From Spirochaetota bacterium (lineage in GTDB: Bacteria > Spirochaetota > UBA4802 > UBA5550), in assembly GCA_963664815.2 (NCBI GenBank), contig CAXXHB010000003.1, forward strand, positions 3,136,001 to 3,200,000: DNA of 64,000 nt, given 5' to 3'. The translations under genes were made by a program, and so were the position numbers. Shown one piece after another: positions 51,236 through 63,252 of the stretch (the first letter of the stretch is position 1; every line of letters starts with the position of its first letter). The notes below the pieces were generated by a model. It did not search any database and was not told the origin of the DNA. It saw only the letters and a list, made by a program, of their open reading frames with translations.

Positions 51236-51649
51236 TTATTTTTTTATTTTTTTTGACCAGTTTTCTATTTTTAAACTTTTCACTTTTTCAAATTCTTTTG
51301 TATTATTTGTTACAAGAATGCCGTTTTTAGCTAAAACTGTTGCAGCAATCATATAATCATTTGGTCCTATACTTGTTCCTTTCAATTCCATTGCCGAACG
51401 AATTTTAGAATAAACAATTGAACAATCATCATCAAATGGTATTATTTCAAAAGGTTCGAGAAATCGATTGATATTAGTTAAATTTTTAGCTTTATGCTGA
51501 CTTTTTTCTGCGCCATAAAGAAGCCCGGTTTTTACAATTGAAGGAATTTTAATATTATTCGGATTTATATTTTGTATATTTTCCATTATAGAAGGATATA
51601 AGCCTTTAAGAAAGTACACACATATATTTGAATCAAGATAATAAATCAT
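51236..51649 (-). CDS. vapC: VapC-family PIN toxin
   Basis: YLDSNIC, IGPNDYMIAA, LVTNNTKEF; the conserved Glu position reads G (VKTGLLYG). Confidence 0.9.
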   Translation of the reverse strand: MIYYLDSNICVYFLKGLYPSIMENIQNINPNNIKIPSIVKTGLLYGAEKSQHKAKNLTNINRFLEPFEIIPFDDDCSIVYSKIRSAMELKGTSIGPNDYMIAATVLAKNGILVTNNTKEFEKVKSLKIENWSKKIKK

Positions 51650-51951: not shown

Positions 51952-52078
51952 GCCGATAACACTGTTCGATGACTGCCCTATGCGCTTAGCTTGTCTAAGC
52001 AAGCCCGAACGACTGCCAGGGAGTTAAGCGCATAAGCTTTATATGAAGGCAATATGTCGTAAACATAAGTTTTTAAAT
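51952..52078 (-). repeat. attC-like site
   Basis: Imperfect long hairpin (TATGCGCTTA/TAAGCGCATA, TGCC/GGCA) ending in GTTATCGGC, which complements the GCAGATAAC after vapC. Confidence 0.65.
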
Positions 52079-57237: not shown

Positions 57238-57476
57238 ACAGTCTATCAGATAACTGTAGAAATAATTATTTTACGGGATTATTATTTTTTCCGGTAAAAT
57301 CACCGGATTTTTACTGTATGTTATTTCAAAGATCGGGAGAAAATGGGATTCGAATTCCTATGACTGTTCTGAGTATTTTCAAAGCATGCACTGTCCGATG
57401 TCAGTGATTTCGTCCAACAAAAGTCTTAACATAGCTGCTGTCTGAAGATTGAAATTATCTGTTCAATGTTTTTATA
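57238..57476 (+). repeat. IS91-like element downstream end plus hairpin arm, copy 1
   Basis: Clearly homologous to 63039-63252, which follows the IS91-like transposase fragment. Confidence 0.8.
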
Positions 57477-57553: not shown

Positions 57554-58531
57554 TTAATAAGAATCAATATGTCTAATTTTATCAATATACCATTTATTTT
57601 CTATTTTTGTTAAATACACATTACATGAGACAAACTCTTTTACTATCTGTTTTTGTGTAAAAGTTTTATCAACATCAATATTAAATCCTTCTTTCGATTT
57701 AGTTTTCAACAGCCAAGCTAATTTTGATGAATTTGTTGGCGAAATTAGCTGAAATAAAATCAAATTATCAAATACATCAACATCATAGTTATGTTCTTTT
57801 AGTTCGTTTTTAAAGGAATCAAATATTTTTATAATATTACTTAAATCTTTGACTTTTTTCTTATAAATTTGATCAATACAATCAAATAATGGAGCATCAG
57901 TTTTATCAGTATAATTTACAAATATTTCTGCAGATGCTGCATCAACTTTGGTTTTACGAATACTTAAATCTACAATTGAATCTGTATAGATATAACCTTC
58001 TTTAAAAGAAGATAAATTATTATTCCATCGTTGTTTTCTAAAATCAGAGCTAAGAAGTTTAAATGCATTCTCATAATTTTTATGTGATAAATGAGTATAA
58101 AAATATTTTACACAAGCATATGCAGAACCATGCTCATCCATTAAGTTCTTAATAAATTTTTTCACTCTATCACGCAGATTGTCTAATGATTCAGGTGTGA
58201 AATCATAAAAAACTTGTCTTAATCCAGTAACATCAAATGGAATTTTATCATCATTATTATATCTTGTAACAATTACATTATTAAAAGACAATGCATGAGC
58301 ATAACCTAATTCATAAAAAACATTGGGATTATTAGAACTAATATCTGCAATAATCATATCAGCGCTTTTTATATTATTTAAAACATCTTCCATAATTTGA
58401 CCGGGTTGTGCAATTTCATCAACTCTTATACATTTAACATCTAATTCATCACATATACTTTTGTATACATTGTTATACACATCTTCATACTTTGAAAATG
58501 GCATAATAACAAAACAATTTTTTTTATCCAT
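57554..58531 (-). CDS. Cassette gene: TIR-like/nucleoside 2-deoxyribosyltransferase-like domain fused to a C-terminal NTF2-like domain
   Basis: CFVIMPF...RVDE...ADIS..NPNVFYELGYAHA; flanked by complementary ends GTTGATATGATAGTTGTGAA / TTCACAACCATCATCTAAC. Confidence 0.75.
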   Translation of the reverse strand: MDKKNCFVIMPFSKYEDVYNNVYKSICDELDVKCIRVDEIAQPGQIMEDVLNNIKSADMIIADISSNNPNVFYELGYAHALSFNNVIVTRYNNDDKIPFDVTGLRQVFYDFTPESLDNLRDRVKKFIKNLMDEHGSAYACVKYFYTHLSHKNYENAFKLLSSDFRKQRWNNNLSSFKEGYIYTDSIVDLSIRKTKVDAASAEIFVNYTDKTDAPLFDCIDQIYKKKVKDLSNIIKIFDSFKNELKEHNYDVDVFDNLILFQLISPTNSSKLAWLLKTKSKEGFNIDVDKTFTQKQIVKEFVSCNVYLTKIENKWYIDKIRHIDSY

Positions 58532-58617
58532 TTAAAACTCCATAATATAAATTATTTTTAAATTCACAACTATCATATCAACGTCTTGGCTATACGACGT
58601 TGCGCGGTCTTTTGCGC

Positions 58618-60451
58618 GTCGAGTGGCGCGAAGGAACTTCCCCTCCGCGCTCTCACGGAACCAGACGTGAATCTCTCAATTCATCCGGCTCTTATTGTTC
58701 AGCCTTTACAGTAAAGAAGACCCCAATGCGTGAAAAGTTTCGGCTCTTTCATTGCTATGCGCTCTATCCAGTGCCTTGCTCTGCGCTTATGACCCCTTAA
58801 CCTTTTATATTTCTTCATTGCCCATTTTGTCAGTATTAAATCAAACAGCCTTAGTGTCGGATACATCGCCGACCGGTAAAAGGCATAGTAATAATTTATC
58901 CATCCTCTGATTCTGGCATTGAACATGCGGGATATCTCCTCAAGTGTCTGGCTGCTCCGAAGATGAACCTTCCACACTTTCATAGTTTCCCTTATATTTT
59001 TCATAGCCTTATCACTGGCGGCAGGACTGAAATTGACAAAGTATTTCCCATGTTTTGTTTTCGACATTCTGGCCTTAAAAGTAAATCCCAGAAAATCAAA
59101 ATTTACTACAGGATATCTCTGCTTTCTCTTGTCATCCCTGCAATAAACAATCTTTGTCTTCTCCGGATGAAGTTCAAGTTTACACTCATTCATCCTTTCT
59201 TCAAGTGCATGCTTCAACTGTATAGCCTGTTCTTCAGTGCTGCAATGACAGATACAGTCGTCTGCGTACCTTTCAAAAGGTATTGACGGATAGTTTCTCA
59301 CCATCCATGCGTCAAATGCGTAATGAAGATAAAGATTCGCAAGCAGCGGGCTTATTACTCCCCCCTGTGGCGTCCCTTTTGTTCTCTCCTCAAGACTGCC
59401 ATCCGGCATTTTCACCGGAGCTTTCAGCCAGCGTTCAATATACAGTATAACCCATCTGCTTTTTGTATGCTTACACACCGCCTTCATCATCAGATCATGA
59501 TCTATTGTATCAAAGAATCCTTTGATATCAAGGTCGATTACCCAGTCATATTTCCAGCAGTGTCTTCGGGCTCTTTCAACTGCATCTTTAGCCGAACGCC
59601 CTGGCCGATAGCCGTATGAATTTTGATGAAATACCTTTTCAAGTTCAGGCTCAAGCATACGCTTGACCACCGTCTGGGCTATCCTGTCAGATACTGCAGG
59701 TATTCCCAGTGATCTTTTCTTCCCGTCACTTTTCGGAATTTCAACACGTAATACCGGCGGAGGCAAATAACTTCCGGATGACATACGGTTCCAGATTTTA
59801 AACAGGTTATTTTTTAAATCTGATTCAAAATCTTTTAGCTTTACTCCGTCTGCTCCGGATGCTCCTCTGTTCGCTTTTACCTGTTTGTAACTATCCCATA
59901 CTTCCTGTCTGGATATTTGAAACGGCTTTGCCTTATCCAATCAATTCCTCCCGTTACCGGTTGATTAATCTCTAAAGCTGAACAATGTGCCCCCTTTGCT
60001 CCATCTCCATTACAGAGACTTCTTCACTACTACGGGACACTCCGCCCCTGTGCTTTGCCTCGGTACTCTCATCCTTGCGGGGCCACCGCTTGAAATTCTC
60101 CCTTATCATCAAAGCGACTTACTTCTCACATTGAACATAAAAGCCAGCTGTAAAGTCACACCATCTTTATGCCGGAAGCCGTCCGGACAGTAAACAGGTC
60201 TCCTCCGGACTTATCCCGGAATCCACATTACACCCCGGTTTTGACTTCAACTGTAGCCTCTTTCGACACCTCAACGATGATTCACTTTCGTTTGTCTCCT
60301 TACAACACACCTGACGTGTTTATCACGCCTTTTCCTTAACGCTCACCACAGTAGCTCTTTACCAATGCAGCTTAAGGTGGTTTGAAGCCTGTACCTGTAT
60401 ACCGGCTCCGAAGGGCCCTCCTTCATCTTTTACACTCCTTCCGTGACACAC
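58618..60451 (-). mobile_element. Full-length group II intron (bacterial class D, RmInt1-like), 1834 bp
   Basis: 5' GTGTG; domain V GAGCCGGATGAATTGAGAGATTCACGTCTGGTTC; domain VI ending ACTCGAC; EBS1 AATGTGG complements IBS1 CCACATT. Confidence 0.92.
58699..59940 (-). CDS. ltrA: Group II intron reverse transcriptase/maturase, no endonuclease domain
   Basis: KPFQI..V..YK.VKANRGA.G.DG, GTPQGGVISPLLANL, YADD, RGWINYY; TTG start with GGAGG SD. Confidence 0.95.
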   Translation of the reverse strand: MDKAKPFQISRQEVWDSYKQVKANRGASGADGVKLKDFESDLKNNLFKIWNRMSSGSYLPPPVLRVEIPKSDGKKRSLGIPAVSDRIAQTVVKRMLEPELEKVFHQNSYGYRPGRSAKDAVERARRHCWKYDWVIDLDIKGFFDTIDHDLMMKAVCKHTKSRWVILYIERWLKAPVKMPDGSLEERTKGTPQGGVISPLLANLYLHYAFDAWMVRNYPSIPFERYADDCICHCSTEEQAIQLKHALEERMNECKLELHPEKTKIVYCRDDKRKQRYPVVNFDFLGFTFKARMSKTKHGKYFVNFSPAASDKAMKNIRETMKVWKVHLRSSQTLEEISRMFNARIRGWINYYYAFYRSAMYPTLRLFDLILTKWAMKKYKRLRGHKRRARHWIERIAMKEPKLFTHWGLLYCKG

Positions 60452-60542
60452 AATGTGGCAAAGCCCAAGTGAGGTACTCTGAACTCTGCGGGTAAGCTTT
60501 GTTGTATGCCGTAAGCGAATTTTGGATTTAATTTATTTTTAT

Positions 60543-61868
60543 TCAAAAAGCAAAAAATTCCGTAATGCATGTATCCTCAAATTTAATCCCAGGGTAAACA
60601 TCTTTTATTGTTATACGAATTTTTGTAATTTCGTAATCGCAATCAAAATCTTCCGGGGCAATAAGAATACTTGTCACATTTATCTCTTTATTGACACCTT
60701 CAAAATCATCTTCGCCCCAATTCAGCAATGCAAAATATTTCGTTTTCAAGTCATCTATGGTTATAGTTTTACTAAATGAAAAAGAGCTTCCATCTGCTCC
60801 TTTCTTGTTACCCTGAATATCACATTGTACTTTTTTAATTCTAGAATTATTTGTAAACAATTTGCTGGATCTCATAAAACCATTCGCAATTGCAATATTT
60901 TTTACACCCTCTTTAAAATCGACTTCAATCCACTCTCCAATCCCATTTCCATCTGCACCTTCCGCCCATGCCGTTTTGAATGTCCCGTCGATAAGATTTT
61001 TAACCGAATAAGGCCCTTTAAGACTGCTCGAAGCGGATATGTTTTTTACTAACAAAGATGTTTTATTTTTCAACACCTGACTGCGGTATTTTTTATAATA
61101 TTTTTCAAGATCATATGCAATTTCAAGATCTCTTAATTTTGAAAAATTTACCTTTTCTATGATTACGCTCTGATTATAATTTTGTTTTTGAAAGCCTTTA
61201 ATCCCATTAATTTTAAAATCAATTTTTTTCATATCTAATACAAAGGTATCTATAACGATTTCTAATTTATCAACAACACCTTTACCCCAGCCAGCTGCAG
61301 GTTTAAAATTATATACGAAAGTTCTTATCCTGTCGCTCCCTTCATCACCGTTATAACTTGATCTTGCTAAATAATTAATTTGAATAATGTTTATCCCTTT
61401 GTTTAGTTTTATCTTTGACAAATACCACTTAATTTCATCATCTTCATCAGATTCAAAAAAATCTTCTCTTTTAATTTTATTTATTTTTTGAGTCAGTGTA
61501 ACATCAGAATTATTTATTGTCATCTTAAAATATTTAATAGAATCATTATCACTATTTTTAAAAGACTGGAAATCTACAAGCCCTACATGCTTGTTATAAA
61601 ATGGAAATCCGAAATCTACAGTTTTATTATCATCTCTACAGTTCAGTTCATATATTAACTGAATATTGACATAATCATCAATAGGTCTGATGAATAGCTT
61701 TTCAGATAAAAGATCAACATTTTCAAATTTTTTTAATTGGACATTACCTGTTGATACAAGTGTTGAACCCTCAATTGGGCCTCCGTTTGATTGAAGTGGA
61801 AATGAGTAGAATATGCTTACTGAAAAAAATAATAAACCAAGAATAGATTCTCTAACTATTTTCATCAC
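60543..61868 (-). CDS. Cassette gene: secreted protein with DUF4424-like N-terminus and discoidin/glycan-binding-like C-terminal domain
   Basis: Signal peptide; SASSSL...NLIDG..KTAWAEG..GNGIGEWI...DTCITE; flanks TAAGCGAATT / AATTCGCTTA are complementary. Confidence 0.7.
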   Translation of the reverse strand: MMKIVRESILGLLFFSVSIFYSFPLQSNGGPIEGSTLVSTGNVQLKKFENVDLLSEKLFIRPIDDYVNIQLIYELNCRDDNKTVDFGFPFYNKHVGLVDFQSFKNSDNDSIKYFKMTINNSDVTLTQKINKIKREDFFESDEDDEIKWYLSKIKLNKGINIIQINYLARSSYNGDEGSDRIRTFVYNFKPAAGWGKGVVDKLEIVIDTFVLDMKKIDFKINGIKGFQKQNYNQSVIIEKVNFSKLRDLEIAYDLEKYYKKYRSQVLKNKTSLLVKNISASSSLKGPYSVKNLIDGTFKTAWAEGADGNGIGEWIEVDFKEGVKNIAIANGFMRSSKLFTNNSRIKKVQCDIQGNKKGADGSSFSFSKTITIDDLKTKYFALLNWGEDDFEGVNKEINVTSILIAPEDFDCDYEITKIRITIKDVYPGIKFEDTCITEFFAF

Positions 61869-63038: not shown

Positions 63039-63252
63039 ACAGTCTATCAGATAACTGTAGAAATAATTATTTTACGGAATTATTATTTTTTCCGGTAAGA
63101 TCATCGGATTTTTACTGTATGTTATTTCAAAGATCGGGAGAAAACGGTATTCAAATTCCTAAATATACTGTTCGATCCCAGTGGTTTCGTCCAACAGAGT
63201 CTTAACATAGCTGCTACCTGAAGATTAAAATTATCTGTTTAATGTTTTTATA
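63039..63252 (+). repeat. IS91-like element downstream end plus hairpin arm, copy 2
   Basis: Homologous to 57238-57476; contains GTTTCGTCCAAC. Confidence 0.8.

Follow-up and report, generated by a model that had tools for sequence, protein, structure and literature searches.

An endonuclease-less class D group II intron probably at home in the top strand of an attC-like cassette-array repeat in one spirochaete family

Before 2021, class C (IIC) was the only class of group II intron reported with integrons, as recounted in a section of PMC7923331. The IIC-attC introns (e.g. S.ma.I2) are class C elements that insert into the bottom strand of the cassette recombination site (attC), opposite to cassette transcription, according to the portion of PMC3001079 that deals with them. 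Three IIB introns found near integrons in halophiles (UHB.I2, H.ha.F1 and H.ha.F2) were then reported by Sonbol and Siam (2021); in the relevant parts of that report, UHB.I2, of the chloroplast-like 1 (CL1) class, lies immediately after an attC site, and class E fragments lie in clusters of attC sites lacking integron integrases (CALIN) (PMC7923331). A further type is represented by RmInt1, which is placed in IIB3 / class D in passages of PMC5894124 and PMC3001079 and whose preferred pathway, as outlined in a part of PMC5894124, is reverse splicing into DNA in single-stranded form at the replication fork, biased towards the lagging-strand template. Here, we describe a group II intron in a 64,000-nucleotide stretch (referred to as the window) of contig CAXXHB010000003.1 from a Spirochaetota bacterium. 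The intron interrupts a repeat with the architecture of an attC site, and it probably belongs to an endonuclease-less class D lineage whose natural home is the top strand of this attC-like cassette-array repeat in one spirochaete family. Literature searches returned no class D intron homing into attC sites.

Comparison with the systems described above places this intron closest to RmInt1. Both encode a reverse transcriptase (RT)/maturase of ∼415 residues with a conserved C-terminal tail and no DNA-binding/endonuclease (D/En) domain; both match the same Rfam domain I family, both have a 7-nt exon-binding site 1 (EBS1), an EBS2 and an EBS3 at homologous positions, and most copies of either intron sit on the lagging-strand template, a bias already published for RmInt1. 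They differ in target, which is an IS630-family element for RmInt1 and an attC-like cassette repeat for the spirochaete intron, in EBS1 itself (UUUCGUC and AAUGUGG, respectively), in the unmatched EBS3 of the spirochaete intron, and in its position on a separate deep branch of the RT tree. With the IIC-attC introns it shares a home in cassette recombination sites and the interruption of arrays. By contrast, it is a class D element inserted in the top strand, in sense and mid-site, with a 7-bp pairing between EBS1 and intron-binding site 1 (IBS1), and none of the features of IIC-attC introns (a class C RT, a IIC RNA and bottom-strand insertion) was found. The contrast with IIC-attC introns drawn in a preliminary description of the locus therefore holds, as regards the bottom-strand, opposite orientation given for those introns in PMC3001079. 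Like the introns of the halophile study, it is a non-IIC intron associated with cassette arrays, and UHB.I2 is likewise oriented with the cassettes; the cases of PMC7923331 are single or truncated copies, as opposed to five full class D copies at one internal site in two species.

The window lies in the genome designated G000, whose spirochaete identity is borne out by three above-cut-off FlaA matches, as compared with zero in 14 control genomes. Comparisons were made with G006, which belongs to the same genus and is assembled as one contig, and with a set of 64 genomes (25 genera) of one spirochaete family; five of the eight genomes of the genus are fragmented into 50–410 contigs. Positions of the intron, open reading frames (ORFs) and repeat halves are those of the window, and positions on G000 or G006 contigs are written with C1, C3 and so on. 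In agreement with the preliminary description, which had called the element an intact, RmInt1-like class D intron lacking an endonuclease, the intron is complete at 1834 nt. An Rfam scan matched RF01999 (group-II-D1D4-2) over the whole length of the model near its 5′ end (60424–60309, minus, 116.6 bits) and RF00029 (domains V/VI) at 58693–58618 (minus, 51.6 bits), the latter match stopping at the last intron base. The RT ORF in domain IV is uninterrupted, and a Pfam scan of the 413-residue product detected RVT_1 and GIIM and nothing else, the D/En domain being absent. The features of the interrupted site are as follows.

60451 to 58618, minus strand: complete group II intron of 1834 nt, 5′ GTGTG...GAC 3′ (sequence, Rfam)
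59940–58699, minus strand: intron-encoded RT/maturase, 413 residues, YADD present, no D/En domain (ORF, Pfam)
58658–58691, minus strand: domain V, 34 nt, AGC triad at 58690–58688 (sequence, within the RF00029 match)
58621–58655, minus strand: domain VI, with a candidate branch-point A bulged at 58624 (7 nt from the intron 3′ end; branch point predicted from sequence)
60223–60229, minus strand: EBS1, AATGTGG, loop sequence closed by the 7-bp stem CCGGGGT/ATTCCGG (sequence, RmInt1-homologous columns)
60452–60458, minus strand: IBS1, CCACATT, final 7 nt of the 5′ exon, the same in all five occupied sites
60256–60261, minus strand: EBS2 by homology, AGAGGC, intron nt 191–196, loop after GUGUCGAA (column scan, weak)
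60167, minus strand: EBS3, placed by alignment with RmInt1 G329; an A (intron nt 285) that does not match IBS3 G (58617)
60452–60509, minus strand: 5′ repeat half, with R″ ..ACAAC, spacer AAA, L″ GCTTAC, IBS2 and IBS1 (nhmmer, alignment)
58574–58617, minus strand: 3′ repeat half, with the inner-hairpin 3′ arm, L′ GTATAGC, spacer and R′ GTTGATA (nhmmer, alignment)

The G000 RT was 52% identical to the RmInt1 intron-encoded protein over 403 residues, the alignment reaching residue 406 and including the C-terminal tail. RF01999 also matched RmInt1 itself (113.7 bits) and all 12 other related loci scanned. In a quick maximum-likelihood tree of 78 RTs, with RmInt1 as the sole labelled reference and no curated references for other classes, the G000 and G006 RTs paired with support 100 inside a 69-row clade containing RmInt1 (SH-aLRT 100); nine distant RTs outside this clade come from the same spirochaete family and order. 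The best plasmid matches to the RT were from S. meliloti. One of these loci (L089, match H3) was recognized as RmInt1 by its published marks, namely a length of 1884 nt, IBS1 GATGAGA, EBS1 TTTCGTC, the 3′ exon CCTGGACGAAG and an IS630-type host, the host gene being split into HTH and DDE_3 halves. Another S. meliloti match (H1, 62.5% identity) was rejected as RmInt1, being a relative nested in the RT gene of another intron. Class C had first been suggested by a PDB search, in which the best matches were IIC RTs (7uim, 173 bits; GsI-IIC, 166.5 bits), and was dropped after direct comparison with RmInt1; the higher scores to IIC RTs are attributed to no class D structure having been deposited. 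Thus, sequence comparison supports assignment of the intron to bacterial class D (IIB3), of the endonuclease-less RmInt1 type.

To define the interrupted site, a hidden Markov model (HMM) was trained solely on four uninterrupted G000 repeat copies found by BLAST of the intron flanks. The model matched the 5′ flank at positions 3–67 and the 3′ flank at positions 65–105. Given that both matches end at the intron borders, removal of the intron restores a 102-nt member of the repeat family (58574–58617 joined to 60452–60509), as had been anticipated from the window alone. The proposed mid-site position on the cassette strand was also borne out, since the HMM halves lie to either side and the intron, the flanking ORFs and the R″-to-R′ strand of the repeat all lie on one strand. 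The repeat is ∼110–170 nt long and occurs in a short form and a ∼166-nt long form. In an alignment of 15 copies from two genomes, an R box (..AAC / GTT..) is followed by an unpaired asymmetric spacer (AAA versus AAGAC), a 9-bp L stem (GCTTAC-CCG / CGG-GTAAGC; 93% paired, compensatory changes present) and a variable apex containing the inner hairpin TTGCG(G)C...G(C)CGCAA. The intron is inserted between bases 2 and 3 of the 5′ arm of this inner hairpin. RNAalifold alone gave part of the hairpin; the remainder was completed by hand, and the pairing was then tested. Standard pairs were present in 83% of cells, as against ∼30% when the 3′ partners were displaced by 1–3 columns. Changes on both sides were seen at eight pairs, and none of 500 shuffles reached the observed covariation score. 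The innermost R-box pairs (columns 21–125 and 22–124) were standard in 13 of the 15 copies each and the outer A-T pair (20–126) in 11. Canonical extrahelical bases were not identified in the 15-copy alignment. The imperfect hairpin, R″/R′ and L″/L′ elements, unpaired spacer and variable apex are those of attC architecture.

The genomic context of the repeat is likewise that of a cassette array with an adjoining integrase-like gene. A covariance model found 11 copies in G000 and 71 in G006, and in the family scan (E ≤ 1e-6) the repeat was detected in 32 of 64 genomes and 14 of 25 genera. The minus strand of genome G006 carries an array of ∼100 kb (4,328,794–4,426,631), built of units of one or two mostly co-oriented ORFs. 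A tyrosine recombinase gene (G006:C1:4426936–4428000) is encoded by that strand as well, and the array ends ∼300 nt downstream from it. The corresponding gene of G000 lies at C3:1972139–1973209 (L001 1219–2289, minus). Orthologues of the recombinase were found in 26 of the 64 family genomes, often directly followed by repeats. Repeats lie directly downstream on the same strand in eight genomes spanning five genera (G000, G006, G007, G028, G004, G009, G086 and G061), with looser adjacency in G017. This layout resembles that of Treponema integrons, in which, in the section of PMC3607928 describing them, the array has the same orientation as the integrase and the attC sites measure 115 and 132 bp. 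Given that architecture and context agree with attC sites whereas the enzyme does not match the integron integrase family, the repeat is referred to here as attC-like.

The intron is present once in G000, by BLAST of the genome, and four times in G006 (C1:2808699–2810532, 4332423–4334256, 4345968–4347801 and 4348798–4350631). The G006 copies are 99.9–100% identical to each other and 80% identical to the G000 intron at the nucleotide level, with RTs that share 77% amino acid identity. In both species every copy, five in all, comes after GCCACATT in a member of this one repeat family. Short-form repeats hold three of them, including two in G006; the remaining two G006 copies are in the long form, their rejoined exons matching the ∼166-nt version of the repeat. 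These flanks bear out the proposal that the lineage homes to the repeat by EBS1-IBS1 pairing. The 20% nucleotide divergence and a synonymous divergence (dS) of about 1.9 between the two RTs imply that the site preference is old, the ratio of nonsynonymous to synonymous divergence (dN/dS) of 0.07 implies purifying selection on the RT, and the near-identity of the G006 copies implies recent spread in that genome. The further suggestion that the intron spreads along arrays agrees with the three G006 copies located within ∼18 kb; it does not extend to G000, where a single copy lies outside any long array. The 64 family genomes yielded neither additional copies nor additional junctions, and public genome and metagenome contigs contained no relative above 63% amino acid identity, the closest relatives using other targets. 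The target motif, searched as CTTGGGC-N2-8-GCCACATT, occurred 83 times in 15 of the 64 family genomes, compared with one match for the reversed control; two genomes of the genus, G004 and G005, account for 15 and 7 of these motifs, respectively. In G000 the sole copy of the motif is the occupied one, and other repeats carry the variants CGGCAAATT, CGCCACATC, CGGCACATT and CGCCATATG at the IBS1 position.

The recognition of this site can be described by comparison with related introns. EBS1 (AAUGUGG) forms seven of seven pairs with the 5′ exon end CCACAUU in both G000 and G006, as the preliminary description had noted for the former, and occupies the alignment columns of the published RmInt1 EBS1. 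When the same columns were compared with each intron's own 5′ exon, at least six of seven pairs were found in 44 of 54 related introns, whatever the target; the other ten comprised three with cut exons, four with a loop indel (unscored) and three with 3–5 pairs. In these alignments, EBS1 changes in step with IBS1 among relatives whose targets are unrelated. For the EBS2 loop that follows the conserved GUGUCGAA, a column scan gave at least five of six pairs in 29 of 45 distinct targets, and the G000 core GAGGC can pair with exon GCUUU (60460–60464) through 5 bp, two of them G-U. The EBS3 column (RmInt1 G329) pairs with the first base of the 3′ exon in 44 of 53 introns. In G000 an A faces G at this column; the intron sequence is common to the four G006 copies, whose 3′ exons start with G or A. 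Similar mismatches are present in a few relatives, and an A-A EBS3-IBS3 mutant of RmInt1 completed the second splicing step without defect, as stated in a passage of PMC4238363. The claim that homing is guided by EBS/IBS pairing is thus upheld with respect to EBS1 and not with respect to EBS3 or the EBS2 first proposed. That candidate, GAAAGT (60284–60289), was rejected: it lies 28 nt upstream of the homologous loop and reads GCAAGT in G006 with no compensating exon change. Recognition must reach beyond EBS1, given that 71 other GCCACATT 8-mers in G000 are unoccupied. The RmInt1 target extends 20 nt upstream according to the part of PMC5894124 concerned, and, by analogy, the added specificity of the spirochaete intron would be explained by IBS2 and the distal 5′ exon.

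The class D relatives used in this comparison provided two observations of their own. In 27 of the 54 (loci L010–L087, L088 and L090), the 5′ exon ends GAYGAYN after TAYGCN. These introns sit in the YADD codons of the RT gene of another group II intron, with matching EBS1 (AGUCGUU) and EBS2 (GCGUA), and such intron-in-intron homing is widespread among class D relatives in many phyla. At one locus (L014 1953–3823 and 3824–5694), two full class D copies lie head to tail with no spacer in the chromosome of a Bryobacterales metagenome-assembled genome, either as a real tandem or as an assembly artefact.

Occupancy of the target motif in G006 is markedly asymmetric. Four of five forward-strand sites are filled, compared with none of 39 reverse-strand sites. 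The exact 18-mer of three occupied sites is carried by 26 of the 39 empty reverse-strand sites, so that an identical 18-mer is found empty 26 times in one orientation and filled at three of four sites in the other. The one-sided exact probability of this split, 5/135,751, makes the asymmetry look stronger than it is, because the insertions are not independent. Replication direction in G000 and G006 was taken solely from the dnaA position and coarse GC skew. In G006, dnaA lies at 3.87 Mb, and the skew is positive from 4.2 Mb through the contig end/start to 1.35 Mb and negative from 1.6 to ∼3.8 Mb, which makes the plus strand the lagging-strand template at 4.33–4.43 Mb. Accordingly placed, three of the G006 introns (4.33–4.43 Mb) lie on the lagging-strand template, and the target strand of the 39 empty sites lies on the leading-strand template. 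On G000 contig C3 the skew stays negative between 1.85 and 4.27 Mb (dnaA being on contig C2), and the minus-strand intron at 3.196 Mb is therefore also on the lagging-strand template. Both plus-oriented G006 stretches that hold the three introns are bracketed by inverted pairs of insertion sequences (IS).

G006 4343174–4345763 / 4351438–4354027: IS21-like inverted pair, 2590 bp, 100% identical
G006 4329613–4330716 / 4338639–4339742: IS30-like inverted pair, 1104 bp

These bracketed stretches look like flipped pieces of the G006 array. Since all G006 introns share one orientation, recombination between introns cannot have made the inversions. One IS21-like end adjoins half of a repeat that breaks off immediately behind GCCACATT, no more than one or two bases from the position at which the intron inserts. 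By GC skew, the main G006 array (4,328,794–4,426,631) has the bottom strand of its repeats on the lagging-strand template. Chromosomal integrons of Vibrio are described as having the opposite strand arrangement.

Several observations weigh against the proposal that a class D lineage has its natural home in the cassette-array repeat. The RT tree carried no labelled references for classes other than D. Only two of the 15 motif-bearing family genomes contain the intron and only five of 83 motif sites are occupied, and in G000 the repeat copies are mostly scattered, with the intron site not inside a long array. The EBS2 pairing is weak, the G006 loop AGAGCC requiring a 1-nt register shift to pair with exon GGCUUC, and EBS3-IBS3 is mismatched in all five copies (A-G or A-A). 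A one-off ectopic insertion at a chance EBS1 match, with no specificity at the level of the lineage, would fit the single copy in G000 and the use of other targets by the closest public relatives (≤63% identical). It is scarcely credible given that four G006 copies with the same EBS1 occupy the homologous position of the same repeat family despite 20% divergence. It could also be argued that the intron reads the folded hairpin, as IIC-attC introns do, and that the EBS1 match is secondary; the insertion site does lie inside a conserved hairpin, and the 71 empty 8-mers would be explained. This is very improbable because both RT and RNA are class D rather than IIC, insertion is in the top strand within the stem rather than in the bottom strand downstream of a stem-loop, EBS1 and IBS1 covary across relatives with unrelated targets, and the added specificity has the RmInt1-type explanation given above.

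The nature of the repeat and the origin of the strand asymmetry require similar scrutiny. The recombinase scored 220.7 bits against TIGR02249 (IntI), in two stretches, compared with a cut-off of 265, and no protein in G000 or G006 exceeded that cut-off; NF040815 ("XerA / integron integrase") was the only model matched above cut-off. Its best PDB match, VchIntI4 (2a3v), aligned in two pieces, with recombinase residues 262–278 (17 residues) opposite VchIntI4 182–240 (59 residues), such that ∼40 residues of the IntI-specific region are absent, and the protein has an extra N-terminal part of ∼85 residues. Lacking both the additional domain and an above-cut-off score, it does not qualify as a canonical IntI, and the cassette platform may be run by a non-canonical integrase. 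This result, together with the mostly scattered distribution of the 11 G000 copies, would suit a different kind of intergenic palindromic repeat, such as a repetitive extragenic palindrome (REP)- or miniature inverted-repeat transposable element (MITE)-like sequence or a Xer-type site with no integron link. Such an origin is unlikely in view of the R box AAC/GTT, unpaired spacer, compensated L stem and variable apex, the arrays whose units hold one or two co-oriented ORFs, the eight genomes of five genera in which an array sharing the strand of the recombinase gene begins just downstream of it, as in the Treponema integrons treated in that section of PMC3607928, and an IS110-family element at one position in three repeat copies, reminiscent of the IS1111-attC group. 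The asymmetry, for its part, might stem from transcription, from counterselection of introns within the main array or from rearrangements that followed insertion. In favor of such causes, the G006 copy at 2.8087 Mb, one of four, is on the leading-strand template by present-day skew, although the 20 kb around it show a slightly positive skew (+0.018) within the negative region and may reflect a recent move. The filled G006 sites are few, in only three places, and their near-identical copies are not independent events; in addition, replication direction was deduced from dnaA and skew as described. These causes are nevertheless somewhat unlikely, since the 18-mer of three filled forward-strand sites recurs unchanged at 26 reverse-strand sites that are empty, an inverted IS pair lies around each filled segment, the introns of G006 share one orientation, the G000 copy is independently on the lagging-strand template, and a lagging-strand bias is documented for RmInt1 in the cited part of PMC5894124.

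The genes flanking the interrupted repeat in the window are given below.

60543–61868, minus strand: upstream cassette-like gene, 441 residues, NADase_transloc F5/8 type C domain, DUF4424 (ORF, Pfam)
57554–58531, minus strand: downstream co-oriented gene, 325 residues, sub-threshold Nuc_deoxyrib_tr match only (ORF, Pfam)

A homologue of the upstream gene product (57% identical) is encoded inside the G006 array, and the downstream gene begins 43 nt past the R′ GTT of the repeat. Direct repeats of ∼240 bp (window 57238–57476 and 63039–63252; 87–95% identical across three blocks) bracket a 5.8-kb stretch containing the two cassette-like genes and the intron, and fragments of an RHS/YD-repeat gene are duplicated at 53.9–57 kb of the window. 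A weak extra match to the repeat model was found at window 51953–52060 (minus, 24 bits, E 9e-4), beside a gene (51236–51649) whose DNA is 79% identical to a cassette adjoining a repeat in the G006 array.

A second type of mobile element was observed in the repeats of G006. Three copies of a 1.54-kb element encoding a 400-residue IS110-family (DEDD) transposase were found, each inserted in an attC-like repeat at approximately the same position (around model position 59).

G006 L183 15102–16637: IS110-family element
G006 L183 18689–20224: IS110-family element
G006 L184 17421–18956: IS110-family element

The IS1111-attC group of IS110-family elements reportedly parasitizes cassette recombination sites specifically. 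That group resembles the intron in being a mobile element resident on cassette sites and differs from it in being a DNA transposon with a DEDD transposase and not a retroelement.

Taken as a class D lineage at home in the attC-like repeat, which we regard as the probable explanation, the intron would act as follows. The intron RNA would base-pair with ...GCUUY G CCACAUU|, a target within the 5′ arm of the repeat's inner hairpin, through seven Watson-Crick pairs of EBS1 and about five weaker pairs of EBS2, with EBS3 unmatched. Only sites whose top strand serves as the lagging-strand template would be filled, as expected for an endonuclease-less intron of the RmInt1 type. Placement of 1.8 kb between the repeat arms would strongly reduce folding, would probably disable the recombination site and would weld two cassettes together. 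Given its sense orientation, the intron could in principle be spliced from the cassette transcript. The anatomy and class of the intron, the identity of its site, the five insertions at a single position and the strand asymmetry are observed; the replication-fork mechanism, any present activity of the intron and its consequences for cassette excision are inferred.

In summary, a class D lineage appears to have reached the attC niche by base pairing to a conserved in-site motif on the sense strand, where prior attC targeting was represented by one class C sub-lineage reading the bottom-strand DNA hairpin. The G006 genome constitutes a natural experiment on the replication-strand dependence of endonuclease-less retrohoming, and links three layers of mobile elements: a recombinase with its cassette array, IS-bracketed segments and intron invasion. 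The comparison also draws attention to a cassette platform, family-wide in these spirochaetes, with a recombinase that is not a canonical IntI. A bolder proposal, possible though on balance doubtful, is that the intron is an obligate parasite of the cassette-site top strand as lagging-strand template, that array orientation sets a trade-off between recombination and invasion, and that the platform is an Xer-like type of integron. If this is true, hairpin folding of the recombined bottom strand would be favored on the same lagging-strand template, and an array oriented for easy cassette recombination would be immune to the intron. Segments flipped between IS copies would become invadable and would then be frozen by the 1.8-kb insertion, and the platform of this spirochaete family may be a distinct integron type with an Xer-like recombinase that lacks the IntI insert.

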